A stretch of 64,000 nt of DNA, from positions 7,577 to 71,576 of the forward strand of contig DATMES010000022.1 of NCBI GenBank assembly GCA_035556555.1, given 5' to 3'. The position numbers were made by a program, and so were the translations under genes. The notes beneath the pieces are model-generated. The model was given only the letters and a program-made list of their open reading frames with translations. It had not been told where the DNA came from and ran no database searches. The stretch comes from Frankiaceae bacterium. GTDB taxonomy: Bacteria > Actinomycetota > Actinomycetes > BP-191. Below are positions 4,200-29,531 of this stretch, piece after piece (the first letter of the stretch is position 1; each line of letters starts with the position of its first letter).

Positions 4200-4901
4200 G
4201 TGCCCTTCCTCCTCGACGACGTCGTCGTCACGCGCGGCGAGGGGGACGACCACGTACACCCGCTGGCGGACGTGTCGTTCGCGATCGCGCCCGCCCGCGC
4301 GACCGTCGTCGTGGGGCCTTCCGGCTCCGGCAAGTCGACGCTGCTGCGCCTGCTCAACCGCATGGAGGAGCCGAGCGGCGGCCGGGTCCTGCTGCACGGC
4401 AAGCCGTTGCCGGAGTACGACGTCCTCGCGCTCCGCCGCCGTGTCGGCCTGCTCATGCAGCGGCCGACGCCGTTCCCAGGGTCGGTCATCGACAACCTGC
4501 GGACCGGCGCGCCCGCGCTGTCCGAGCCCGAGGCGCTCGCGCTGCTGGCGCGGGTGGGTCTCGCGGAGACGTTCCTCCACCGCGACACCGACGAGCTCTC
4601 CGGCGGCGAGGCTCAGCGGGTCTGCCTCGCCCGCGCGCTCGCGGTCGGGCCCGAGGTGCTGCTGCTGGACGAGGCGACGAGCGCGCTGGACCCGTTCGCG
4701 GCGCAGGTCGTGGAGGGCGTCGTACGGTCGCTCGTCGACGAGGGCCTCACCGTCGTCATGGTCTCGCACGACCTCGCCCAGGCCCGCCGCGTCGCCGACG
4801 ACCTCGTCGTCGTGCTGGAGGGCCGGGTGGTCGCCGCCGGACCCGCCGTCGAGGTGCTCGCCGACCCGGCCGCGGCGGCGTACCTGAACGGCGTCGCGTG
4901 A
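4200..4901 (+). CDS. ABC transporter ATP-binding protein, FetA/YbbL-like
   Basis: Walker A GPSGSGKST, signature LSGGEAQR, Walker B LLLDEATSALD, H-loop; start is approximate (no upstream stop in frame). Confidence 0.8.
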   Translation: MPFLLDDVVVTRGEGDDHVHPLADVSFAIAPARATVVVGPSGSGKSTLLRLLNRMEEPSGGRVLLHGKPLPEYDVLALRRRVGLLMQRPTPFPGSVIDNLRTGAPALSEPEALALLARVGLAETFLHRDTDELSGGEAQRVCLARALAVGPEVLLLDEATSALDPFAAQVVEGVVRSLVDEGLTVVMVSHDLAQARRVADDLVVVLEGRVVAAGPAVEVLADPAAAAYLNGVA

Positions 4902-5704
4902 ACGACGTCCCCGTCCCGCAGTGGTGGGGCGTCGCGCTGGCGTCGTTGCTCGTCGCGGCCACTGGCGCGGTCATCGTGCGCGAACGCCTCGGCCTCGGTC
5001 GCGACGTGGTCGAGGCCGCCGTCCGCGCCGTCGTCCAGCTCGTCGTCGTCGGCTTCGTGCTGGTGTTCCTCTTCGAGCGCGCGGGCATCCCGGGCTCGCT
5101 CGGCTGGGTCGGCGGGATGGTGCTGCTCGCGGGTCGTACGGCGGGGCGGCGCGCCCGCGGCCTGCCCGGGGGCGTACGCGCCGCCACCGTCGGCATCGCC
5201 GTCGGCGTCGCCTGCACGCTCGGCCTCGTCGTCGGCGCGGGCGTCCTCGCCGCCGAGCCGCGCGTCGTCGTCCCCGTCGGCGGCATGGTCGTCAGCGCAG
5301 CCATGCAGGGCTGCTCGATCGTGCTGCAACGCGTCGCCGACGAGGTCGCGTCGTCGCGGCCGCTCGTCGAGGCGCGGCTGGCGCTCGGGCTGCCGGGGAC
5401 GGCGGCGTTCGCGCCGCACCGGCGCCTCGCGCTGCGCGCGTCGCTCGCGCCGGCCATCGACCAGACCAAGGTCGTCGGGCTCATCGCGCTGCCCGGCACC
5501 ATGACCGGCCTCATCATCGCGGGCGTCTCGCCGCTTACCGCGATCCGCTACCAGATCGTCGTGCAGTACATGTGGCTCGGCGCCGCCGCGATCTCCGGGC
5601 TGGTCGCCGCGCGGCTCGCGTCGCGGACCGTCTTCGACGACGCGCACCGCCTCCGCCCCCTCGTTACGGCGCGCCGCCGGAAAACTGTCACACCCCGCCC
5701 CTAA
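4898..5704 (+). CDS. ABC transporter permease, FetB/YbbM (UPF0014) family
   Basis: GTG overlaps ATPase stop (GTGA); about 268 aa polytopic membrane protein with the YbbM-like GLIALPGTMTG motif. Confidence 0.75.
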   Translation: MNDVPVPQWWGVALASLLVAATGAVIVRERLGLGRDVVEAAVRAVVQLVVVGFVLVFLFERAGIPGSLGWVGGMVLLAGRTAGRRARGLPGGVRAATVGIAVGVACTLGLVVGAGVLAAEPRVVVPVGGMVVSAAMQGCSIVLQRVADEVASSRPLVEARLALGLPGTAAFAPHRRLALRASLAPAIDQTKVVGLIALPGTMTGLIIAGVSPLTAIRYQIVVQYMWLGAAAISGLVAARLASRTVFDDAHRLRPLVTARRRKTVTPRP

Positions 5705-5715
5705 CGTCCCTCCCT

Positions 5716-7599
5716 ATGGAGCGGACCGGGGGACTGCCGTACGTCCCCGCCCTGGACGGCGTGCGCGGCGTGGCCGTGCTCGCCGTGCTGCTGTTCCACG
5801 GCGGCGTCTCGTGGCTGCCCGGCGGCTTCCTCGGGGTGGACGCGTTCTTCGTGCTGTCGGGGTACCTCATCACTGGGTTGCTCCTCGCGGGCGTGCCGCT
5901 CCGGACCTTCTGGTCCCGGCGCGTGCGGCGGCTGCTGCCTGCCCTCGCCTTGCTCGTGCTCGTCGTCCTGTGTCTCGGCTCCGTGCTCAACGCCGCACCC
6001 CGCGACGCGCTGGGCGCCTTGACCTACCTCTCCAACTGGCGGTCGTACGCCACCGGCGGCGGCTACTTCGCGTCGTTCGCCGATCCGTCGGCGTTCAAGC
6101 ACACGTGGTCGCTGGCCGTGGAGGCGCAGTTCTACGTCGTCTGGCCGCTCCTCGTGGTCTGCGTCTGCCGCCGCGCGCGCGGGCCCGTGCTCGCGGCTGC
6201 AGGCGTGGGGGCGCTCGTGTCGGCGGCGGCGATGGCGGCGTCGTTCCGGCCCGGCGGCGACCCCGCGCGGGCCTACTACGGCACCGACACCCGCATCCAG
6301 GCCCTCCTCGTCGGCGCCGCGCTGGCCGTCGTGCTCGCGCGCGCAGCGGTGCCCCGCGCGATCGGCTGGTCGGGCCTCGCGGGCGTGGGGCTGACGCTGT
6401 GGGTCTGGCACACCGCGTCCGGCACCTCCGACGACCTCTACGGCGGCGGCTTCCTGCTAGCGGCCGTCGCCACCGCGGCCGTCATCGCCTCGGTCGTGCT
6501 GCTGCCGTCCGGGCCGCTGGCCCGCGCGCTGTCCGTACGCCCCCTGCGCGCGGTCGGCATCGTGTCGTATGGCGTCTACCTCTGGCACTGGCCGGTGTTC
6601 CTGCTGCTCACCGGCGCGCGCACCGGCCTGAGCGGCTTCTGGCTCCTCGCGCTGCGGTTCGCGGCGACCGCCGCCTGCACCGCCGTCTCCTGGTACGCCG
6701 TCGAGGTCCCCGCCCGCACCTGGTCGCCCCGGCTGCCGCCGCTGCACGTACGGCGGGTGGCGCTGGCGGGCGGCACGGCGTTCGCGCTGGCGGCGTTCCT
6801 CGCGCTGTCGCCCGGCACGCCGCCGGGCCCGCCATCCGCGGCGGCTGACCCGCTACCCACGGCGTCACCCACGGCCGCGCGGCGCCCCGCCCGGGCGCCC
6901 ACGACGACCGCGCCGACGACACCCGCGCCCACCCGGGCCGCCGGCGGGCCGACGCGGGTGCTGGTCCTCGGCGACTCGGTGGCGCAGACGCTCGCGGCCG
7001 GGCTGCCCGACGGCGACGGGTTCGACGTCGTCAACGCCGCCGCCCTCGGCTGCGGCCTCGTCACCGGCGGGTACCGCTACTTCGGCGGCCAGTACGACGA
7101 CCCGCCGCACTGCGTCCAGTGGCCGCAGACCTGGGGCGCGGCCGTGGCACGGCACCAGCCGGACCTCGTCGCGGTGCTCGTCGGCCGGTGGGAGGTCATG
7201 GACCGCCGCCTCGACGGGGAGTGGCGGCGGCTGGGGGACGCGGCGTTCGACGCGTACGTCACCGCCCAGCTCGACCGCGCCGTCGACGTGGTCTCCGCCG
7301 GCGGCACCAAGGTCGCGCTGGTCACGGCGCCGTACTACCTCCGCGGCGAACGCCCCGACGGCGGCCGCTTCCCCGAGGACGACCCCGCCCGCGTCGACCG
7401 CTTCAACGCCCTGCTCCGCGACGTCGCGGCGAGACGCGGCGTCGCCGTTGTGGAGCTCGGGGCGGCGCTCGCGCCGGAGGGGACGTTCACGCGGCACATC
7501 AACGGCACCCTCGTCCGCTACGACGGCGTCCACATCAGCGGCGCCGGCGCGCGCATGCTGCGCCCCTGGCTCCTCCGCCAGCTCACCGCCGCCCTCTGA
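5716..7599 (+). CDS. Acyltransferase-3 (OafA/OatA-like) membrane domain fused to a C-terminal SGNH hydrolase domain
   Basis: N-terminal 10-TM acyltransferase-3 region (FHGGVSWLPGGFLGVDAFFVLSGYLIT); Pro/Thr linker; SGNH block VLVLGDSVA. Confidence 0.85.
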   Translation: MERTGGLPYVPALDGVRGVAVLAVLLFHGGVSWLPGGFLGVDAFFVLSGYLITGLLLAGVPLRTFWSRRVRRLLPALALLVLVVLCLGSVLNAAPRDALGALTYLSNWRSYATGGGYFASFADPSAFKHTWSLAVEAQFYVVWPLLVVCVCRRARGPVLAAAGVGALVSAAAMAASFRPGGDPARAYYGTDTRIQALLVGAALAVVLARAAVPRAIGWSGLAGVGLTLWVWHTASGTSDDLYGGGFLLAAVATAAVIASVVLLPSGPLARALSVRPLRAVGIVSYGVYLWHWPVFLLLTGARTGLSGFWLLALRFAATAACTAVSWYAVEVPARTWSPRLPPLHVRRVALAGGTAFALAAFLALSPGTPPGPPSAAADPLPTASPTAARRPARAPTTTAPTTPAPTRAAGGPTRVLVLGDSVAQTLAAGLPDGDGFDVVNAAALGCGLVTGGYRYFGGQYDDPPHCVQWPQTWGAAVARHQPDLVAVLVGRWEVMDRRLDGEWRRLGDAAFDAYVTAQLDRAVDVVSAGGTKVALVTAPYYLRGERPDGGRFPEDDPARVDRFNALLRDVAARRGVAVVELGAALAPEGTFTRHINGTLVRYDGVHISGAGARMLRPWLLRQLTAAL

Positions 7600-12436: not shown

Positions 12437-12483
12437 GGCTGGCTCCGTTCGGTAGGGAATGCCCGGACGTGGGCGATGGCAGG

Positions 12484-13722: not shown

Positions 13723-13788
13723 GCGCCACGCCGACGGTGCGAGAGAATGACCCCACCGCGCCCGCGAACATCCAGGGGAGAGAACGAC

Positions 13789-17139: not shown

Positions 17140-18051
17140 ATGCCCCTCGCCGCCGAAGAGTTCGCCGGTCTCACGCACGTCGGGTCCGGCAAGGTCCGCG
17201 AGCTGTTCGCGGTGGGCGACGACGCGATCCTGCTCGTCGCCTCCGACCGGATCAGCGCGTTCGACTACGTCCTCCCCACCGAGATCCCCGACAAGGGCGC
17301 GGTGCTGACGGCGCTGAGCCTGTTCTGGTTCGACCTGCTCGCGGAGATCGTGCCGAGCCACGTCATCACGACGAAGGTGGACGAGTACCCAGCCGAGCTG
17401 AAGCCGTACACCGAGCAGCTGCGCGGGCGTTCGATGCTCTGCAAGCGGCTCGCCATGGTGCCCGTCGAGTGCGTCGCGCGCGGCTACCTCACCGGCTCCG
17501 GCCTCAAGGACTACAACGCCACCGGCGAGGTCTGCGGCATCGCGCTGCCCGCCGGCCTCGTGGACGGCTCGAAGCTGCCCGCGCCGATCTTCACGCCGGC
17601 CACCAAGGCCGAGGTCGGGCTGCACGACGAGAACATCTCCGAGGAGGCCGTCGCCGCCACCGTCGGCCGCGAGCTCACCGACGAGCTCAAGCGGCTCACC
17701 ATCGGCATCTTCGAACGCGCCTCCGTCCACGCCGGCGAGCGCGGCGTCATCCTCGCCGACACCAAGTTCGAGTTCGGCCACGACGAGAACGGCGTCCTGA
17801 CCCTCGGCGACGAGGTGCTGACGCCGGACTCGTCGCGGTTCTGGCCCGCGGACACGTACGAGCCCGGCAAGGCGCAGCCGTCGTACGACAAGCAGTACGT
17901 CCGCGACTGGCTCGTCGGCTCGGGCTGGGACAAGAACAGCGAGCCGCCCGCGCTGCCCGCCGAGGTCGTCGAGAAGACGCGCGCGAAGTACGTCGAGGCG
18001 TACGAGCGGCTCACCGGCGCGTCGTTCGACGACTACCTGCGCAACGCGTAG
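17140..18051 (+). CDS. purC: Phosphoribosylaminoimidazole-succinocarboxamide synthase
   Basis: Long-form SAICAR synthetase; GKVRELF and ILADTKFEFG motifs. Confidence 0.95.
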   Translation: MPLAAEEFAGLTHVGSGKVRELFAVGDDAILLVASDRISAFDYVLPTEIPDKGAVLTALSLFWFDLLAEIVPSHVITTKVDEYPAELKPYTEQLRGRSMLCKRLAMVPVECVARGYLTGSGLKDYNATGEVCGIALPAGLVDGSKLPAPIFTPATKAEVGLHDENISEEAVAATVGRELTDELKRLTIGIFERASVHAGERGVILADTKFEFGHDENGVLTLGDEVLTPDSSRFWPADTYEPGKAQPSYDKQYVRDWLVGSGWDKNSEPPALPAEVVEKTRAKYVEAYERLTGASFDDYLRNA

Positions 18052-18236: not shown

Positions 18237-19166
18237 GTGACACGGTGGCGCCGCCTGCACGCCGGCGCGGTCGTCCTGACCCTCGTCGGCGGCTGCGGCG
18301 CGCTCGGCCTGCGCGCGCTCTCCGACGCCAAGCCGGTGAGCGTCGACGACGCCGTGGCCCGCTTCCGCGAGGGGCAGAGCGCGACGCCGTCACCGGGGTC
18401 GCCGACGAGTCCGGCGCCCACGCCGTCCGCGACCGGCACCGCCGTCCGCGGCAGCAGCGCTCCGGCCAAGCCGGGGACGAGCGGCGCGCCCACCGCGACG
18501 GCCCGGCCAGGCGGCACCACAGCGCCCAAGCCGGGGACCGCGGGGCCGAGCCTCACCGCCGCGCCCGAGGGCGTGTACGTCTACGCCACCACCGGCCACG
18601 AGACCGGCGACGCCGGCCCGACCACGTCGCGGCACGACTACCCGTCGGAGACCACGTGGACGATCCGGCGTTCGGGCTGCGGGTCGAGCCTGCGCTGGGA
18701 GCCGGTCGAGGGCCGCTGGGACGACGTCACCGACTGCGGGGACGGCAGGACCAGCAAGATCAGGACGTACGACACGATGCACACGTTCTACGGGATCTCC
18801 GAGCGGATGACGTACCAGTGCTCGGGCGACTCGTGGCTCCGTCCGCCCTCGACCGCGGCGGGGTACACGTGGGAGTTCGACTGCGTGTCGGAGCGCGCGA
18901 AGACGCACACCGAGGCGCGCATCGTCGGGATCGAACGCGTCTCCGCCGGCGACGGCACGGTCCGCGCGCTGCACGTGCGCTTCGACACGACGCTGTCCGG
19001 CAGCTCCACGGGCACCAACCCGAGCGACTACTGGCTGGCGCTCGACGGGCCGTACATGATCCGCAAGACGGGGCGCGTGGACGCGACGGTGCGCACGGAG
19101 TTCGGGACGATCGACTACCACGAGGAGTACGACGTCCGCCTCGTCTCGCGCAAGCCGCGCACGTAG
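18237..19166 (+). CDS. Putative lipoprotein with a Pro/Thr/Ser-rich linker (309 aa)
   Basis: Lipobox LVGGC; low-complexity PT linker followed by a Cys-containing globular domain. Confidence 0.5.
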   Translation: MTRWRRLHAGAVVLTLVGGCGALGLRALSDAKPVSVDDAVARFREGQSATPSPGSPTSPAPTPSATGTAVRGSSAPAKPGTSGAPTATARPGGTTAPKPGTAGPSLTAAPEGVYVYATTGHETGDAGPTTSRHDYPSETTWTIRRSGCGSSLRWEPVEGRWDDVTDCGDGRTSKIRTYDTMHTFYGISERMTYQCSGDSWLRPPSTAAGYTWEFDCVSERAKTHTEARIVGIERVSAGDGTVRALHVRFDTTLSGSSTGTNPSDYWLALDGPYMIRKTGRVDATVRTEFGTIDYHEEYDVRLVSRKPRT

Positions 19167-19204: not shown

Positions 19205-19450
19205 GTGCCGCGCGTCGTCGTCGACGTCACGCTCAAGCCCGAGATCCTCGACCCGCAGGGCCAGGCCGTCGCCAACGCCCTGCCTTCGCTCGGCTTCACC
19301 GGCGTCGAGGGGGTCCGCGTCGGGAAGCACTTCGAGATCGACCTGTCGGGCGAGGTCGACGAGCAGCGGCTCGCCGACGTCCGCACGATGGCGGAGAAGC
19401 TGCTCGCCAACCCCGTCATCGAGGACTTCACCGTCCGAGTAGAGGAATGA
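19205..19450 (+). CDS. purS: Phosphoribosylformylglycinamidine synthase subunit PurS
   Basis: 81 aa; VVVDVTLKPEILDPQGQAV...GVEGVRVGKHFEIDL. Confidence 0.9.
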   Translation: MPRVVVDVTLKPEILDPQGQAVANALPSLGFTGVEGVRVGKHFEIDLSGEVDEQRLADVRTMAEKLLANPVIEDFTVRVEE

Positions 19451-20196
19451 CGCAGACCCCTGTGCCGCAGGTCGGCCAGGGGCGTCGCCCACCCGTCAAG
19501 CGCCCGTGGCCCCGGCTCCCGCTGTGGTTCTGGGCCGGCATCGGCGTGGTGCTCACCGGGTTCGTCGCCGTCGGCATCGTCGCGATCGTCACGATGGCGT
19601 CGTTCGAGGAGCAGCCCCTCTACGAACGCCGATCGCCCCCCATGGCCGGCGAGCAGTCGCACCACGTGGGCCGGGTCGTCCTGCCGGACGCGCCGGTGCG
19701 CGACGTCGAGTGCGGCGCGATCAGCGGCCTCAAGGTGCAGGGCGGCGCGGAGACCGGCGACCTGCTCGCCGAGGCACTGCGCGGGCTCTGCCGGCGGGTC
19801 GCCGCGGTGGACACGTACGGCGTCGAGCTGGCCGAGCGTATGAAGCGCCTCGCGGAGCAGGGCGCGGTGGTGTCGTTCGCCAACTTCGGGCGCACCGGCG
19901 AGCTGACCACGACGCTGCCGGGCACGCCGCCGCGCATCCTGCTCAACGACGCGTTCATCCGCGGCGGGGGGCAGTTCAAGGGGTTCCTGCTGCCGGAGCT
20001 GGCGCACGAGCTGTGGCACGCGGGCAGCGTCGACGTCACCGCCGAGGACGAGCTGACGGCGCGGAAGGTCGAGCTGGCTGCGTGCGCGCTGACGCCGTCG
20101 AGCGAGGCGTTCCGCGGGTGCACGGACGCGAAGCGGATCGTGGCCGAGGGCGACGAGAAGGCACTCGCGGGGCTGCGCGAGGCGGGATACCCCTAG
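19447..20196 (+). CDS. Membrane-anchored protein with an HExxH motif (putative Zn-dependent hydrolase), inserted between purS and purQ
   Basis: ATGA overlap with the purS stop; one N-terminal TM helix (LWFWAGIGVVLTGFVAVGIVAIV); LPELAHELWH contains HELWH. Confidence 0.55.
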   Translation: MTQTPVPQVGQGRRPPVKRPWPRLPLWFWAGIGVVLTGFVAVGIVAIVTMASFEEQPLYERRSPPMAGEQSHHVGRVVLPDAPVRDVECGAISGLKVQGGAETGDLLAEALRGLCRRVAAVDTYGVELAERMKRLAEQGAVVSFANFGRTGELTTTLPGTPPRILLNDAFIRGGGQFKGFLLPELAHELWHAGSVDVTAEDELTARKVELAACALTPSSEAFRGCTDAKRIVAEGDEKALAGLREAGYP

Positions 20197-20726
20197 GAGG
20201 GCTTCTTGCGCTCCGGCGGGAGCGCCGTCCACGTGATGGTGGCCTTGAACGTCCCCGTACCCCCGCGGTTGACGACCGCGAACGTGTAACGGCCCATCGG
20301 AAGCTGGTTGACCCGGAAGCTCAGGTGGTACTTGGTGAAGGTTTCGCTGTCCGGAAGCGGGCAGCACCCCACGATGTCGTGGCTGCGGTAGAAGTCGCCC
20401 TTGCTGGTGTACAGCACGAGCGCGCCGGCCATCGACGCGTCGAAGACGCCGCTGACGACGAACTCGCCCTTGGTCCTGCCCTTGGGGAGTGTGAGCCGGA
20501 GGTTGCGCACGCTGCAGCTCTGCTCGGTGCAGTCCTCGAGGACCGGGTCGATCTCGCCCTCGGTCGTGCCGGTGACCGGGACGGCGGCCGCGTCGAGCGT
20601 GCCGGACCACGTCCTCGACGTCGTCCGCTTGCCGTCCAGGGTGTACGTCCCCACAGCCGTCGCCGGCGACGACGCCAGCAGCGCGCTGACGGCGGTCGCG
20701 GCGAGGAGCACCCGGCGGACGTTCAC
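20193..20726 (-). CDS. Secreted hypothetical protein (178 aa)
   Basis: GTG start with AAGGGAGAG RBS; signal peptide VNVRRVLLAATAVSALLASSPATA; convergent overlap with the upstream gene. Confidence 0.5.
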   Translation of the reverse strand: MNVRRVLLAATAVSALLASSPATAVGTYTLDGKRTTSRTWSGTLDAAAVPVTGTTEGEIDPVLEDCTEQSCSVRNLRLTLPKGRTKGEFVVSGVFDASMAGALVLYTSKGDFYRSHDIVGCCPLPDSETFTKYHLSFRVNQLPMGRYTFAVVNRGGTGTFKATITWTALPPERKKPS

Positions 20727-20857
20727 GGCTCTCCCTTGCTGGGGGGTGAGAAAGCCTATTTCTGCGCCGATTGTGGGTTCTCCTTCCTGGCGCGTAAAGA
20801 CCCCGGCCCCCAGGTACGCTGGGACCGCACCCCTCCAGACCACGTCGAGGAGCCCGC

Positions 20858-21538
20858 ATGCCCGCCCGCGTCGGCGTCGTGACGTTCCCCGGATCGCTCG
20901 ACGACCGCGACGCGCTGCGCGCCGTCGAGCTGGCCGGCGGCGAACCCGTGAGCCTGTGGCACGCCGACCCGTCGCTGCACGGCGTGGACGCCGTGATCCT
21001 GCCGGGCGGGTTCTCGTACGGCGACTACCTCCGCTGTGGCGCCATCGCCCGCTTCTCGCCGGTGATGGAGGCCGTCATCGCGCACGCGCGCTCCGGCGGC
21101 CCGGTCCTCGGCATCTGCAACGGCTTCCAGGTGCTCTGCGAGTCGCACCTGCTCCCCGGCGCGCTCATGCGCAACGGCGGCCGCCGCTTCACCTGCCTCG
21201 ACCAGCGGCTGCGGATCGAGTGCGCCAAGACCGCGTGGACGACGGCGTACGCCGAGGGCGACGAGGTCACGATCGTCCTCAAGAACGGCGAGGGCCGCTT
21301 CTACGCCGACGAGCGCACGCTCGACGCGCTCGAGGCCGAGGGGCGGGTCGTCGCGCGGTACCTCGACGGCAACCCCAACGGCTCGCTCCGCGACATCGCC
21401 GGCATCACCAACGAGGACGGCAACGTCGTCGGCCTCATGCCGCACCCCGAGCACGCGGTCGAGGCGCTGACCGGCCCCGGCACCGACGGGCTCGGCTTCT
21501 TCACGAGCGTCCTGGAGCACGTCGGCCTCAAGGCGTAG
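20858..21538 (+). CDS. purQ: Phosphoribosylformylglycinamidine synthase I (glutaminase subunit)
   Basis: Class I glutamine amidotransferase; GICNGFQ nucleophile and PHPE motif. Confidence 0.95.
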
Positions 21539-21664: not shown

Positions 21665-22459
21665 GTGCCTGGTCTGGTCGGCGCCCTGTCGGTGCTGGGC
21701 ATGGCCGTCGTCGCGCCGCTCGGGCTCCGCCGCCTGGCGACGCCGGGCGTGGCCCGCCTGGTCCCGTTCTGGCCGTTCCTCGCGCTCGTCGCGGGCTGGG
21801 GTCTGCTGCTGGAACGCGGCGCCGTCGCGGTGGCTCTCGTGCTGCCGTACGCCGTCGCCTGCGCTGCCGTCGCGGCGCTCGCTGCACTGCGGTTCCTGCG
21901 CGACCGGCGGCTCGGCACGCGCGACATGGTGGCGGGGTTCGCCTGCGCGGCGCTGTTCGTCGCGGCGACCAGCCTCGTGGCGGAGCGCGCGGGAATCGAG
22001 TTGCTCGGCTTCACCCTCGCCATCCACGGGCTGACCGTGGCGCACTTCCACTACGCGGCGTTCGCGGCGGTGCTCGTCGCGGGGCTCACCTGGCAGGCCG
22101 CGCCGAGCCGTCTCACGACCGCGGGCGCGTGGGCGGTGCCGGTCGGGACCGCGATCACGTTCGCGGGCTTCTTCACCGGCAACGCCGTCGAGCTCGTCGG
22201 CGCCACGGTGCTGACGGGCGGGCTGCTGCTGACGTCGTACGCCCTGCTTCGCCTGCGCCCCCACGCGTTCCTCGTCGTCGCCGCGCTGGCCATCCCGCTG
22301 ACGATGGCGCTGGCGCTGTGGTGGGCGGCGGGCGAGGCGTTCGGGTACGGCCACCCGACTCTGCGGCAGATGGCCGCGACCCACGGCGTCGCGAACGCGC
22401 TCGGCGTCGGCCTCTGCGGCCTGCTCGGCTGGCGTTCGGTGACGCCGCCATCGCTGTAG
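21665..22459 (+). CDS. Integral membrane protein (264 aa, about 8 TM), unknown function
   Basis: GTG start; hydrophobic throughout; lies between purQ and purL. Confidence 0.5.
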   Translation: MPGLVGALSVLGMAVVAPLGLRRLATPGVARLVPFWPFLALVAGWGLLLERGAVAVALVLPYAVACAAVAALAALRFLRDRRLGTRDMVAGFACAALFVAATSLVAERAGIELLGFTLAIHGLTVAHFHYAAFAAVLVAGLTWQAAPSRLTTAGAWAVPVGTAITFAGFFTGNAVELVGATVLTGGLLLTSYALLRLRPHAFLVVAALAIPLTMALALWWAAGEAFGYGHPTLRQMAATHGVANALGVGLCGLLGWRSVTPPSL

Positions 22460-22510: not shown

Positions 22511-22753
22511 TCAGCCGTCGTACGGCGGACAGTCCCAGGTCGGCTCACCTGCGACGTAGACGTCCCCCTGCGAGGTCACCGTGACCACGCCGTAGCTGCC
22601 GGCGAGGCTGGTGAAAGCCGGGCACGCCGCCTCGTCGGCATGGCCCGACCAGCAGCGCGGGTTGCCCGGGTTGGTCAGGTGACATGCGTCTGCCGGGGTG
22701 GTGCCGTACAGCGCACCACCCGCGAGCACCGTGACGAGCAGGATCCTCCTCAT
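22511..22753 (-). CDS. Small secreted Cys-containing protein (80 aa), truncated paralog of the two downstream genes
   Basis: Signal peptide MRRILLVTVLAGGALYG; shares the N-terminal ACHLTNPGNPRC motif with the paralogs. Confidence 0.45.
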   Translation of the reverse strand: MRRILLVTVLAGGALYGTTPADACHLTNPGNPRCWSGHADEAACPAFTSLAGSYGVVTVTSQGDVYVAGEPTWDCPPYDG

Positions 22754-22755
22754 CG

Positions 22756-23208
22756 TCACGTCCCCTCGATCGCGCCGGCGACTTGTGCGGTGACGGGCCC
22801 GCCACATGGATTGCCGACAGGGGACGTCACGACGAACACGGCGGCACCCGCGCCGTCGATGTCTCCCGTAGTCGTGATGACCGCCGTGGCGCCGACACGT
22901 AGCCAGGTGAAGTTGACGTCGATCGCGCCGGTGACCGAGCCGGTTGCGCTGCCACTGATGACGCAGGTCGCGTCAGCCGGGTCGACGACGGTGTACGAAG
23001 CGCTGGCGCTCCCGAAAGCAGCCCCAACGACCGTCAGTGTGGCGGTTCCGGGACGCGGACCTGGGCAGCCGAAACAGCCGATGCTGGCTACACCAGTGAA
23101 GCCCACAGCACACCGGGGATTCAGCGGTTGGGTCCGGCAGGCGCTCGCTACGGGAGCGGCGTGCGCCACGCTGCCGGTGAGCAACGTGGCGAGCAAGAAC
23201 AGCTTCAT
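22756..23208 (-). CDS. Secreted hypothetical protein, paralog A (150 aa)
   Basis: GGAGGA RBS; signal peptide; ACRTQPLNPRC...GCFGCPGPRPGTA...ITTTGDIDGAG...TSPVGNPCGGP. Confidence 0.6.
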   Translation of the reverse strand: MKLFLLATLLTGSVAHAAPVASACRTQPLNPRCAVGFTGVASIGCFGCPGPRPGTATLTVVGAAFGSASASYTVVDPADATCVISGSATGSVTGAIDVNFTWLRVGATAVITTTGDIDGAGAAVFVVTSPVGNPCGGPVTAQVAGAIEGT

Positions 23209-23224
23209 TCATCCTCCATTGCTG

Positions 23225-23695
23225 TTAGGTACCGGCCACCGCGCCGGCGACTTGCGCAGTGATCGGGCCGCCGCAGGGGTTACCGACCGGCGACGTGATG
23301 ACGAACGTGGCGACACCCGCGCCGTTGATGTCGCCCGTGGTCGTGATGACTGCCACGGCGCCGAGGCGCACCCAGTTGAAGTTGACGTTGACGGCACCCG
23401 TCACGTTGCCCGTCGCCGTGCCGCTGATGATGCAGGTCGTGTCAGCCGGTAGGACCGCCGTGTAGTCAGCGTGGGCGCTTCCGTTGATGACGACGCCGCT
23501 CGTGACCGACAGGCTGGCGGTACCGGGCCGTGGGCCAGGGCAGCCGAAGCAACCCATCTGGGTTGTTCCGGTGAACGCAGCGGAGTGAACGTGGCACCGG
23601 GGATTCAGCGGTTGGGTGATGTGGCAGGCGCTCGCCGAGGGAGCGCCGTACGCCACGCTGCCGGCGAGCAGCGCGAGTAGAGCGACTTTGCGCAT
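23225..23695 (-). CDS. Secreted hypothetical protein, paralog B (156 aa)
   Basis: GGAGGA RBS before the internal ATG (MRKVALLALLAG); family identity with paralog A is high. Confidence 0.6.
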   Translation of the reverse strand: MRKVALLALLAGSVAYGAPSASACHITQPLNPRCHVHSAAFTGTTQMGCFGCPGPRPGTASLSVTSGVVINGSAHADYTAVLPADTTCIISGTATGNVTGAVNVNFNWVRLGAVAVITTTGDINGAGVATFVITSPVGNPCGGPITAQVAGAVAGT

Positions 23696-23805
23696 TCTTC
23701 CTCCGTGGAAAAGCAAGGCTGTCTCTCACTCCGGCTGTATGAGTGAGTCAGCGTGACTGCGCAGCGGACCGCCCCGGAAGTAGTCCCGGGGCGGCCTCGG
23801 GTGCG

Positions 23806-24405
23806 CTACGGGAAGAGACGGTCGTTGGTCTCCATGCAGTCCGTCGGCTCCTGGATCGCGACAGCGAGCGCGAACTCGACCGGGCACGCGGCGACGTCGA
23901 AGTAGCCCCAGTCGGCCCCGCCGTCACGCCAGACCTCGAGCACCGGGAGCGTGCTCGGGCCCACGTTTCCCTCGAGGAACTGGATGCTCATCGTGGTGGT
24001 GCCGGTCTTGACGCAGACAGCACTGGCCGCGAGCCCGATCGAGATCTGGACGGGTACCGGGTCGGCGACCGTGGCGAGCACGGTGGGGCAGAGCGACGCG
24101 TCGTCGTCGACGTCCACGTCGGGCAGCGTGCCGCCGGACGCGACGTCCGCGATGATCGTGAGGCCCCCGAGCGGGACCTGTACCCACGTCCACCGGACGC
24201 AGACGACGGTGCGGGTCGAGCTCTGGCTGTCGATCCAGACGCGGTCGTCGGGCTGCTCGTTGAGGCCACCAGTGAAGAGCCTGGTGGACTCCGTCGCGCG
24301 GCAGTCGTCGGACGTGGCGGCGACGGCCGTGCTGGCCGGCAGCAACGTCGTGGTCAGGACGGCGGTGGCTGCCACGGCAGCACAGCGCAGGATTGCCTTT
24401 CGCAT
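23806..24405 (-). CDS. Secreted hypothetical protein (199 aa, 6 Cys)
   Basis: AAGGGGG RBS; signal peptide MRKAILRCAAVAATAVLTTTLLPASTAVAA. Confidence 0.5.
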   Translation of the reverse strand: MRKAILRCAAVAATAVLTTTLLPASTAVAATSDDCRATESTRLFTGGLNEQPDDRVWIDSQSSTRTVVCVRWTWVQVPLGGLTIIADVASGGTLPDVDVDDDASLCPTVLATVADPVPVQISIGLAASAVCVKTGTTTMSIQFLEGNVGPSTLPVLEVWRDGGADWGYFDVAACPVEFALAVAIQEPTDCMETNDRLFP

Positions 24406-24628: not shown

Positions 24629-26839
<2,211 letters not shown>

Positions 26840-26855: not shown

Positions 26856-27641
26856 GTGCCCGTACGACTGCCCGCAGGGGCCGACGCGCTCGCCGGCGTG
26901 ACGGCGCAGTACGCCCTCGTCTCCGAGACGGTGGCGGCGCTGTCCGACGAGGCGTTCGCGCTGCCGACGAGGCTCGGTACGTGGACCGTCGCCGAGCTGG
27001 TCGCGCACCTCGCCTCGACGCTCGACGCCGTGCCGCGCGCGCTCGCCAAGCCGGCGCCGGCGGAGCCCGAGGCGGACATGCTGACGTACCTCGGAGCCAT
27101 GCGCGCGGTCTCCGACGCCGTCGCGCAACGAGCCGTCGACAACGCCGCCGGCGTCGCGCCCGCCGACCTCCGCGCGCGGGTCGCCGCGGCCGTGACTGCC
27201 ACCGAGGAGGCGCTCGACGGCGCCGACCCCGCGCGGCTCGTGCTCGTCCGGCTCGGCGCCGTACCGCTGGGGGACTTCCTCGTCACGCGCTGCGTCGAGG
27301 GCGTCGTGCACGGCCTCGACCTCGCCGCCGCGACCGGCACCCCGTGGCCGCCGGACCCGACGGCGCTCAAGGTCGTGGTGCGCGCGTTCGCGGCGCTGCT
27401 CGAGCAGGTCGCGCCGGGCCGCGCGCTGGAGGTACGCGTCCCCGGTCACGTCGCCGTCCAGTGCCTCGGCGGCCCCCGGCACACCCGCGGCACGCCCCCG
27501 AACCTCGCCGAGGCCGACCCCGTGGCGTTCGTCGAGGTGAGCGCCGGGCGGCTGAGCTGGGTCAACGCGATCGCCCGTGGCCAGATCAGGGCGTCCGGCA
27601 AGCGTTCCGACCTCACCGAGCACCTGCCGCTGATCGGATGA
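26856..27641 (+). CDS. Mycothiol-dependent maleylpyruvate isomerase-like (MDMPI N-terminal, DinB_2 fold) family protein
   Basis: WTVAELVAHL motif typical of the TIGR03083 family. Confidence 0.65.
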   Translation: MPVRLPAGADALAGVTAQYALVSETVAALSDEAFALPTRLGTWTVAELVAHLASTLDAVPRALAKPAPAEPEADMLTYLGAMRAVSDAVAQRAVDNAAGVAPADLRARVAAAVTATEEALDGADPARLVLVRLGAVPLGDFLVTRCVEGVVHGLDLAAATGTPWPPDPTALKVVVRAFAALLEQVAPGRALEVRVPGHVAVQCLGGPRHTRGTPPNLAEADPVAFVEVSAGRLSWVNAIARGQIRASGKRSDLTEHLPLIG

Positions 27642-28007: not shown

Positions 28008-29531
28008 GTGGCCATCAGCCACCCGCCGACCGAGCCGAACATCCCCGACGAGCAGCCACCCAAGGACGCCTGCGGCGTCTTCGGGGTCTGGGCGCCCGGC
28101 GAGGACGTGGCCAAGCTGACGTACTACGGCCTCTACGCCCTGCAGCACCGCGGGCAGGAGGCGGCCGGCATCGCCGTCAGCGACTTCACGAACGTCATCG
28201 TCTACAAGGACCTCGGGCTCGTCGCCCAGGTCTTCGACGAGCCGACGCTCGCGACGCTGACCGGCAGCCTCGCCATCGGGCACACGCGCTACTCGACGAC
28301 CGGCTCGTGCACGTACGAGAACGCCCAGCCGTCGTTCAAGCAGATCCAGGGCGGCCGCGGCAGCGTCGCGCTCGGCCACAACGGCAACCTCACCAACACC
28401 CACGAGCTCGCGCGCGAGGTCGACACCGCGCAGGACGAGATGGGCGCGACGACCGACTCGGACCTCATCACGACGATGCTCGCCGCCAACCCCGACCTGT
28501 CGCTGGAGGAGGCCGCCGTCGGCGTGCTGCCGCGGCTGCGGGGGGCGTTCTCGCTGGTGTTCATGGACGAGCAGACGCTGTACGCCGCCCGCGACCGCAA
28601 CGGCGTCCGCCCGCTCGTCCTCGGCCGCCTCGAGCGCGGCTGGGTCGTCGCGAGCGAGACCGCCGCGCTGGACATCGTCGGCGCGTCGTTCGTCCGCGAG
28701 GTCGAGCCGGGCGAGCTGGTCGCGATCGACAGCAACGGCCTGCGCGCCCGTACGTGGGCGGAGCCGGAGCCCAAGGGCTGCCTGTTCGAGTACGTCTACC
28801 TGGCCCGCCCCGACACGCGCATCGCCGGACGCGGCGTCCACGCCACCCGCGTCGAGCTCGGCCGCCAGCTCGCCCGCGAGGCGCCCGCCAACGCCGACCT
28901 CGTCATCCCCGTCCCCGAGTCGGGCGGCCCGGCCGCCATCGGCTACGCCGAGCAGAGCGGGATCCCGTACGGCGAGGGGCTGGTCAAGAACCGCTACGTC
29001 GGCAGGACGTTCATCCAGCCGTCCGACACGATCCGCCAGCTCGGCATCCGGCTCAAGCTCAACCCCGTCCGCGAGGTGCTGCACGGCAAGCGGCTCGTCG
29101 TCGTCGACGACACCATCGTCCGCGGCAACACCCAGCGCGCACTCGTCCGCATGCTGCGCGAGGCCGGCGCCCTGGAGATCCACGTCCGCATCTCCGCGCC
29201 GCCGGTGAAGTGGCCGTGCTTCTACGGCATCGACTTCGCGACCAAGGCCGAGCTCATCGCCAGCGCCGCGACCGTCGACGAGATCCGCAGGCACATCGGC
29301 GCCGACTCGCTGGCGTACGTCTCGCAGGAGGGCCTCGTCGCCGCGACGACGATCCCCGCCGAACGCCTCTGCAGCGCCTGCTTCGACGGCCAGTACCCGA
29401 TCCAGCTGCCCGCCGCCGAGCAGCTCGGCAAGCACCTGCTCGAGGGCATGGGCACCCTCGGCAGCGCCGACCCCGGCCCCGACGCGATGCTGGAGGGGGT
29501 CGGCGCGGCCGACGCCCTCCTGCGCCCGTGA
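28008..29531 (+). CDS. purF: Amidophosphoribosyltransferase
   Basis: N-terminal CGVFGVW nucleophile; PRTase domain. Confidence 0.95.
   Translation: MAISHPPTEPNIPDEQPPKDACGVFGVWAPGEDVAKLTYYGLYALQHRGQEAAGIAVSDFTNVIVYKDLGLVAQVFDEPTLATLTGSLAIGHTRYSTTGSCTYENAQPSFKQIQGGRGSVALGHNGNLTNTHELAREVDTAQDEMGATTDSDLITTMLAANPDLSLEEAAVGVLPRLRGAFSLVFMDEQTLYAARDRNGVRPLVLGRLERGWVVASETAALDIVGASFVREVEPGELVAIDSNGLRARTWAEPEPKGCLFEYVYLARPDTRIAGRGVHATRVELGRQLAREAPANADLVIPVPESGGPAAIGYAEQSGIPYGEGLVKNRYVGRTFIQPSDTIRQLGIRLKLNPVREVLHGKRLVVVDDTIVRGNTQRALVRMLREAGALEIHVRISAPPVKWPCFYGIDFATKAELIASAATVDEIRRHIGADSLAYVSQEGLVAATTIPAERLCSACFDGQYPIQLPAAEQLGKHLLEGMGTLGSADPGPDAMLEGVGAADALLRP

Follow-up and report, generated by a model that had tools for sequence, protein, structure and literature searches.

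Directly behind purS, the gene for the small subunit of phosphoribosylformylglycinamidine (FGAM) synthase, uncultured members of the Actinomycetota carry a gene, here called X, whose product belongs to a previously undescribed family of single-pass membrane proteins of about 250 amino acids (aa), so far found only in these organisms. We describe it from a stretch of 64,000 nucleotides (nt) of an uncultured soil bacterium of the Frankiaceae (assembly GCA_035556555.1, contig DATMES010000022.1, positions 7,577 to 71,576 of the forward strand), referred to below as the window, in which X lies between purS and purQ. With moderate confidence, we read the X protein as an exported, membrane-tethered zinc peptidase that is expressed together with the purine biosynthesis (pur) operon.

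Position of X in the purine operon

The central part of the region contains the following genes (positions are those of the window, E-values of family matches in brackets):

19205–19450, forward strand: purS, FGAM synthase small subunit, 81 aa, GTG start and TGA stop (PF02700, 7.7e-30; NCBIfam PurS equivalog NF004630, 3.7e-31)
19447–20196, forward strand: X, membrane protein of 249 aa with one transmembrane helix and a zincin-like domain at its C-terminus, ATG at 19447 and TAG at 20194–20196
20193–20726, reverse strand: orf177, secreted 177-aa protein with a PPC/collagen-binding-domain-like beta-sandwich, GTG start at 20726
20858–21538, forward strand: purQ, FGAM synthase glutaminase subunit, 226 aa (NCBIfam PurQ equivalog NF002957, 2.2e-96; PF13507, 1.1e-33)

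The stop of purS and the start of X overlap in the tetranucleotide ATGA (19447–19450), and the stops of the convergent genes X and orf177 overlap in the tetranucleotide CTAG (20193–20196), the orf177 stop being the complement of 20193–20195; both overlaps had been read correctly in a preliminary description of this DNA. X and orf177 are both genuine coding genes, because their third-position GC is 0.96 each, their homologues are conserved and their structure models are confident. For comparison, the flanking pur genes have a third-position GC of 0.94–0.99 and the overlapping alternative frames one of 0.56–0.66. Spurious open reading frames in GC-rich DNA are ruled out on the same grounds.

Relatives of X were first looked up at 71, 50 and 37 % identity, and in all three X lies directly 3′ of purS. 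A scan of 185,579 species-representative genomes gave 27 X loci, all of them in metagenome-assembled genomes (MAGs) assigned to Frankiaceae, Mycobacteriales, Actinomycetes, Actinomycetota or simply to a 'bacterium', and the more distant members examined again stand directly behind purS. When a locus is counted as informative if it has enough flank to judge the neighbour, the loci L001 to L037 (34 informative for purS and 30 for purQ) have purS immediately upstream of X in 33 of 34 cases and purQ downstream in 27 of 30, the flanks of the other three being too short and filled by an intervening gene. An independent metagenome scan, which was seeded with the degenerate 'LPRWF' subfamily (see below) alone because the full distant alignment is too divergent, added 40 further loci, with purS directly upstream in 34 of 35 informative loci and purQ downstream in 22 of 32; purQ is not found within 2.5 kb of X in L053 and L071. 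Combined, purS stands directly upstream of X in 67 of 69 informative loci, which span 23–100 % identity and all come from uncultured Actinomycetota.

The junctions between purS and X are mostly tight: 26 of the 70 overlap (23 of them by 4 nt), 38 have gaps of 0–30 nt and six are longer, which leaves 64 that overlap or lie within 30 nt. In several close relatives the sole possible start of X is at −4, with a codon that varies between ATG, TTG and GTG. The tight junction from which coupling to purS had been proposed is real and is kept across the family rather than being peculiar to this genome. In L035, X overlaps purS by 4 nt within a tight operon of 11 genes (purA-purD-purE-purB-purC-purS-X-purQ-purL-purF-purM). 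PurS and PurQ are only 52–70 % and 53–73 % identical, respectively, to the proteins of the window across the X loci, and since they are so diverged, the arrangement of purS and X is old.

X is encoded on the same strand as the pur genes, contiguous with them and conserved alongside them, and shows no homology to the pur protein families of Pfam and NCBIfam. It is a fixed, purS-linked member of the pur operon in an uncultured actinobacterial radiation and is ancestral there. The preliminary description had taken X and its convergent neighbour for an accessory pair inserted between purS and purQ, which the synteny across loci contradicts for X. Our searches of the literature on Actinobacteria turned up no account of any gene lying between purS and purQ.

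In one protein from the representative library (P0163, 341 aa), a PurS-like N-terminus (PF02700, 4.1e-10) seems to be joined to an X-family C-terminus; the junction looks frameshifted and is probably an artefact of assembly or gene calling, and the entry independently confirms the adjacency of purS and X. Only two informative loci are without purS directly upstream, namely L074, where the contig ends within X, and L032, where a minus-strand GATase/C26 gene precedes X (4678–5547) and purQ still follows 17 nt downstream. The X protein of L032 (P0168, 289 aa) carries an unrelated region at its N-terminus and is missing two of the four cysteines described below.

Family, predicted fold and topology of X

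A search of an index of 5.8 billion proteins returned 96 homologues of X, every one of them annotated as hypothetical and derived from a metagenome or MAG, among them an identical entry (100 %; hypothetical protein VNQ77_07220 of a Frankiaceae bacterium, a third-party annotation (TPA) record of a MAG). From 1.84 billion representative proteins, a profile search with the family retrieved only 74 clusters, defined at 50 % identity, and the distant members again come only from uncultured organisms labelled 'Actinomycetota bacterium'. No Pfam or NCBIfam model matched X at E-values up to 0.1, and it does not score above the threshold of any curated family hidden Markov model (HMM) in these databases, including M48, M56, WLM, SprT, M1 and Aspzincin_M35. 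A Pfam scan of 35 diverse members likewise gave no significant match to a peptidase family, only scattered sub-threshold ones, the best of which were YgjP-like (0.055) and Aspzincin_M35 (0.17) in one member each. Nothing significant was obtained in a sequence-profile search against the PDB (a transmembrane segment of cytochrome bd at 0.035, M48 at 0.73), and a Foldseek search against the PDB gave no match below 0.1. Because every curated family model fails, X should be filed as a new family inside the zincin superfamily.

That placement refers to the predicted structure. An AlphaFold2 model of X from a 29-sequence alignment has a predicted local distance difference test score (pLDDT) of 89 and a predicted template modelling score (pTM) of 0.79, with a pLDDT of 85–97 over most of the zincin-like domain, and contains the mixed beta-sheet, the active-site helix and the second helix of the zincin fold. 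The parts of X, all on the forward strand, are as follows:

19447–19521: basic N-terminal tail, residues 1–25, predicted to be cytoplasmic, with the conserved motif RPWPRLPxW
19522–19599: transmembrane helix, about residues 26–51 (AlphaFold2 helix 26–51 and Kyte-Doolittle peak)
19615–20193: zincin-like domain, residues 57–249 (about 190 residues), predicted to be extracytoplasmic, with the ERR motif (R61, R62), H72, C89, C115, C213 and C225
20005–20019: HELWH, the HExxH motif (H187, E188 and H191; residues 187–191), at the end of helix 178–191
20050–20052: E202, which may be the third zinc ligand (HExxH-x10-E); it lies in the first turn of helix 199–213

Conservation was judged in an alignment, A1, of 29 sequences of two clades, A and B, which reaches down to 35 % identity. 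In the tail and at the start of the helix, P20, W21, P22, L24, P25 and W27 are invariant in A1. The hydrophobicity profile has a single strong peak (Kyte-Doolittle, 19-residue windows, 2.55 at residues 30–48; the next peak is 0.80), which together with the modelled helix bears out the one transmembrane helix assigned earlier. On its N-terminal side this helix is flanked by five Lys/Arg and no Asp/Glu, and on its C-terminal side by two Lys/Arg and three acidic residues. The four cysteines (C89, C115, C213 and C225) are invariant in A1, and none is part of a CxxC pair. This charge bias and the four invariant non-CxxC cysteines favour an N-in/C-out topology, in which the domain would be exported and probably stabilised by two disulfides. 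A structural zinc site formed by the four cysteines was judged less likely, given the lack of CxxC pairs and the location of C89/C115 and C213/C225 in separate sub-regions. In the degenerate subfamily the N-tails are long and highly charged, and their export would be unlikely.

Candidate metal site and its loss

The HELWH motif that had been picked out in the extracytoplasmic part of X is indeed present and lies in the structured domain, the helix that carries it being predicted with a pLDDT above 90. Among the residues that are invariant in A1 (29 of 29) are H187, E188, H191, E202, E209, H72, R61, R62, C89, C115, C213 and C225, and 29 of 30 loci of clades A and B have an intact HExxH. When the alignment is widened to 35 representatives, 19 still carry the complete motif, and E202 is present in 19 of these 19. 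The 16 representatives without HExxH have lost E202 in 12 cases and H72 in 10, and in them the four cysteines and the Arg-Arg pair persist. The third ligand that the preliminary description suggested looking for thus has a plausible candidate in E202; since E202 and H72 are gained and lost in concert with HExxH, this co-variation is the best available evidence that E202 would be the third zinc ligand and that H72 would form part of the site.

The loss is most pronounced in the LPRWF subfamily (34 loci), where the motif reads HDxT[LF] or similar. HExxH is intact in one of these loci, E202 is found in six and H72 in seven, and 31 loci retain the cysteine quartet and 33 the Arg-Arg pair. HExxH is therefore not shared by the whole family, since roughly half of the divergent subfamilies have lost it, and pseudo-zincins make up a large part of the X family.

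Proposed role of X and alternative explanations

If X is an envelope peptidase, its basic N-terminal tail would lie in the cytoplasm, one helix would cross the membrane and the compact zincin-fold domain, probably with two disulfides, would face the cell envelope. The gluzincin-type site looks complete in the clade of the window, with H187, E188 and H191 joined by E202 and with H72 co-conserved, and X would most likely be a zinc metallopeptidase tethered to the membrane, cleaving peptides or proteins that are secreted or belong to the envelope. Because its gene is fixed directly after purS in the purine operon, X would be made whenever purS is made, by co-transcription and often also by translational coupling through the 4-nt overlap of stop and start. 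The link to purS would concern expression, with X riding a growth-coupled essential operon, and not catalysis in purine synthesis. Its simplest explanation is a historical one, a promoter-less gene that became trapped inside an essential operon. Every known host of X is uncultured.

Several points weigh against this reading. A consensus scan of 18.0–21.7 kb matched neither a sigma-70 promoter nor a terminator, so that the transcription units are drawn from gene spacing. As to the topology, the invariant R61 and R62 sit just past the transmembrane helix on its C-terminal side, and the flank charge bias is weak or reversed in the degenerate subfamily, where the N-in/C-out orientation is less secure. 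The functions proposed for E202 and H72 and the proposed cysteine pairing are based on co-variation and spacing, not on geometry. Finally, half of the divergent family is without the metal site yet still stands behind purS, and since this position is kept after the loss of the site, the property that retains X there cannot be peptidase activity as such.

The chief rival, possible in our view if rather doubtful, is that the conserved job of the family, perhaps including the copy in the window, is that of a pseudo-protease or binding scaffold, with an ectodomain that binds an envelope ligand or partner as a receptor, regulator or chaperone-like module and a metal site that is an ancestral relic in some clades. 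HExxH is absent from 16 of the 35 divergent representatives and from 33 of the 34 LPRWF loci, most of which also lack E202 and H72, and such motif-less members still keep the four cysteines, Arg-Arg, the length, the transmembrane helix and the position behind purS. There is precedent in zincin-fold proteins with substituted catalytic sites: reports on the CLCA family (PMC3650047) and the FtsHi pseudo-proteases (PMC8197885) describe some members that keep HExxH and others that have replaced it and are conserved all the same. The LPRWF subfamily shares this pattern of loss inside one conserved family, although CLCA and FtsHi are unrelated to X and eukaryotic or organellar, and in X the loss takes E202 and H72 along and leaves the purS neighbourhood in place. 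In clades A and B, however, H187, E188, H191, E202 and H72 do not vary in any of the 29 sequences, down to an identity of 35 %, and all but one of 30 loci keep the motif, which implies purifying selection on the site itself and is not what a relic would display.

We regard it as unlikely that X is a dedicated accessory of FGAM synthase biology, which would tether or regulate PurS, PurQ and PurL, or couple envelope status to purine synthesis, by way of the conserved juxtamembrane tail, as a membrane protein produced in a constant ratio to PurS. Such a role would explain why X never leaves purS even where the zinc site has decayed; it conflicts with the export signals. In a direct form that we credit slightly less again, X would bind PurS, PurQ or PurL through the tail, or through a cytoplasmic C-terminal domain if the topology were reversed, and so hold the complex at the membrane or regulate it there. 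Among members that are only 23–35 % identical, X lies between purS and purQ almost without exception and often overlaps the purS stop, it stays there after the catalytic residues are lost, the tail motif (RPWPRLPxW or LPRWF) is strongly conserved, and the charge bias of distant clades is equivocal, all of which would suit a partner of the synthase. An exported domain is nevertheless indicated by the four invariant cysteines, which do not cluster, and by the charge bias of the window's clade; the family is tiny (the 74 clusters mentioned above) though purS, purQ and purL are widespread, and purQ sometimes stands apart from X, with other genes between them or at a distance above 2.5 kb (L053 and L071). 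purS and purQ are also adjacent in Mycobacterium tuberculosis (Rv0787A and Rv0788), which counts against such a role, and in Bacillus subtilis.

Recent insertion of the convergent pair as horizontally acquired cargo, in this genome or its near relatives, is very improbable: it could draw on the purS-purQ adjacency in these two species, on the different genes that the slot between X and purQ takes in different clades and on the mere 10 database homologues of orf177, whereas X holds the same position in 67 of 69 informative loci spanning the whole family, and even orf177, the only gene that this explanation fits, is common to loci whose X proteins are just 45–50 % identical. The GC content across the region is 0.68–0.75, the same as in the flanks, no flanking repeats of the X/orf177 region were found beyond short, imperfect ones at chance level, a search for plasmid relatives of the region gave no matches, and X is present in all related loci while orf177 alone is clade-restricted; together with the flank-like third-position GC, this rules out the cargo of a mobile element.

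The X family is defined by a zincin fold, a short HExxH-x10-E signature, a membrane anchor and probable disulfides, is covered by no database model, and is unusually rigid in its genomic position, which lies within one of the most conserved operons for biosynthesis. A functional link to purS would point to a new connection of purine synthesis, or of its growth-coupled expression, with the cell envelope in uncultured soil Actinomycetota. If the link is a frozen accident, it would be a clean case of a gene that has been caught in an essential operon for very long and whose active site has decayed in half of the lineages, and X would serve as a synteny marker for this uncultured radiation and give grounds to drop the label 'hypothetical'.

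Comparison with known zincins and purine operons

Judging from the model, the closest shapes to X are Wss1/WLM proteins, minigluzincins, the core of M1-type gluzincins, and M48. The minimal zincins compared were Wss1/WLM (PDB 5xbn and 5ln5), selecase, proabylysin and projannalysin (4qhf, 4jiu and 4jix) and Acel_2062 (3e11), the last being a precedent for a mini-zincin (PMC3890501). Modelled X resembles them in its compact catalytic module of about 100–130 residues, with a small beta-sheet, the HExxH helix and then a helix with a further ligand, in X a candidate one. It differs in that there is no relationship at the sequence level (no Pfam match; E above 0.03 in the PDB profile search) and has in addition an N-terminal membrane anchor, a conserved N-terminal segment (ERR...SH) and four conserved cysteines. 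The third ligand of Wss1 is a His five residues after the second His of the motif, whereas the candidate in X is a Glu 10 residues after it.

With the gluzincins (M1 aminopeptidases, LTA4 hydrolase, thermolysin-type enzymes, botulinum and anthrax lethal factor light chains), X would share the HExxH helix and a presumed Glu ligand on the next helix. These are, however, large, multi-domain and mostly soluble proteins, the match is confined to the core helices and the sheet at 5–14 % identity, and the spacer between HExxH and the Glu is at least 18 residues in M1 and thermolysin as against 10 in X. Compared with HtpX and BepA of M48 (6sar and 3c37) and BlaR1 of M56 (8exp), X has a single signal-anchor helix and no match to the M48 or M56 HMMs, whereas HtpX and BlaR1 are multi-pass membrane proteins. 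We know of no membrane-associated envelope zincin (M48 or M56) that is a fixed member of a purine operon. Set beside the canonical purS-purQ-purL trio, as in B. subtilis and M. tuberculosis, the window shares the three FGAM synthase genes, their order and their common strand, and L035 shows a classical tight pur operon; unlike in the canonical trio, a membrane-protein gene is wedged between purS and purQ, to which the window's clade adds the convergent gene.

The convergent gene and the slot between X and purQ

The best start of orf177, GTG at 20726, gives 177 aa plus the stop, in agreement with database homologues of 176–184 aa. The signal-peptide protein of the preliminary description stands, with predicted secretion, and its length of 178 aa is corrected. 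The N-terminus (MNVRRVLLAATAVSALLASSPATA followed by VG) is a classical signal peptide, behind which comes a single, free-standing domain; in a structure model built with database homologues only, this domain has the beta-sandwich fold of PPC and collagen-binding domains. Pfam and NCBIfam scans of orf177 gave no match, Pfam on 14 members of its family gave scattered sub-threshold matches only, and a scan of 14 homologues with the PF04151 (PPC) HMM gave no match at E-values up to 5. In comparison with the PPC and collagen-binding domains of secreted proteases (PDB 5sv5, 1nqd, 5iku and 3jqw; C-terminal domain of Tk-SP, 3afg), orf177 stands free instead of being a C-terminal protease appendage, has no PF04151 match and is encoded on the strand opposite to the zincin-like gene. 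PPC domains are normally part of secreted proteases, and for this reason orf177 may, speculatively, be a binding module or partner for X.

The gene has a narrow distribution, being present only in the window and in L002, L003 and L005–L009. The slot that it occupies is empty in L010, L011, L032–L035 and L037. In clade B the slot holds a plus-strand gene for a beta-lactamase-family serine hydrolase (PF00144) with an SVTK motif and no signal peptide, which often overlaps the X stop by 4 nt (L004, 4898–5758; equivalent position in L012–L019, L021–L026, L028 and L029), and in L027 a minus-strand PAS-GGDEF diguanylate cyclase gene (4753–6081), with purQ 2.6 kb downstream of X. orf177, which would be transcribed on its own, is thus a later, lineage-specific addition in one sub-clade and one of at least three different genes in this slot. 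X and orf177 are an old gene and a younger neighbour, not the unit that had been proposed. Since orf177 converges on X without a spacer, read-through from purS and X would be antisense to orf177.

Between the divergent orf177 and purQ lies a further feature of this clade:

20727–20857: orf177-purQ divergent intergenic spacer, 131 nt, with conserved blocks

In an alignment of seven loci, those with the convergent PPC-like gene, three blocks of the spacer are invariant: GATTGT (20769–20774), CGTAAAG (20793–20799) and the TAnnnT-like TACGCT (20815–20820), the last 37 nt before the ATG of purQ. A generic sigma-70 scan of the spacer gave no match, and an Rfam scan of 14–26 kb (E-values up to 1) detected no riboswitch or other RNA. 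Its conservation makes the spacer a candidate for an independent purQ promoter, a divergent promoter or an operator, and since the convergent orf177 separates X from purQ, purQ in the window's clade probably has a promoter of its own. GATTGTG was rejected as a regulon motif, as it occurs once in the window, which is chance level, and has a fixed spacing in few loci only.

Other genes of the purine cluster

Two further genes lie upstream of purS:

17140–18051: purC
18237–19166, forward strand: gene for a 309-aa exported protein, between purC and purS

Across the wider window the pur genes form a loose cluster, with purD at 12469, purE at 13747, purL at 24629–26839 and purF at 28008, and genes for exported and membrane proteins are scattered among them. 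The 309-aa protein is exported or lipoprotein-like, with an N-terminal hydrophobic segment that ends in LVGGCG, a Pro/Thr/Ser-rich linker and a weak, sub-threshold match to DUF3108 (1.4e-4). Its homologues occupy the equivalent position in L001, L006 and L007 and are missing from most other loci, and a DUF3108 protein is also encoded near X in L032. Directly 3′ of purQ follows a gene for a YndJ-like multi-pass membrane protein (21665–22459, forward strand; PF14158, 7.4e-54), as it does in L006 and L007.

Between purQ and purL, three tandem genes on the reverse strand (22511–23716) encode small, secreted, Cys-rich paralogues (98, 150 and 163 aa) with a common N-terminal motif (C-H/R-x-T-x-P-x-N-P-R-C), two of which also share a long C-terminal region ending in PVGNPCGGP[VI]TAQVAGA. 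A secreted protein of 199 aa (23806–24405, reverse strand) follows them; neither it nor the Cys-rich paralogues have a Pfam match. On the 3′ side of purL adjoins a gene for an MDMPI_N/SCP_3 (DinB-like) protein (26856–27641, forward strand, in the window; 7274–8074 in L002), another conserved non-pur passenger of the pur cluster of the window type.

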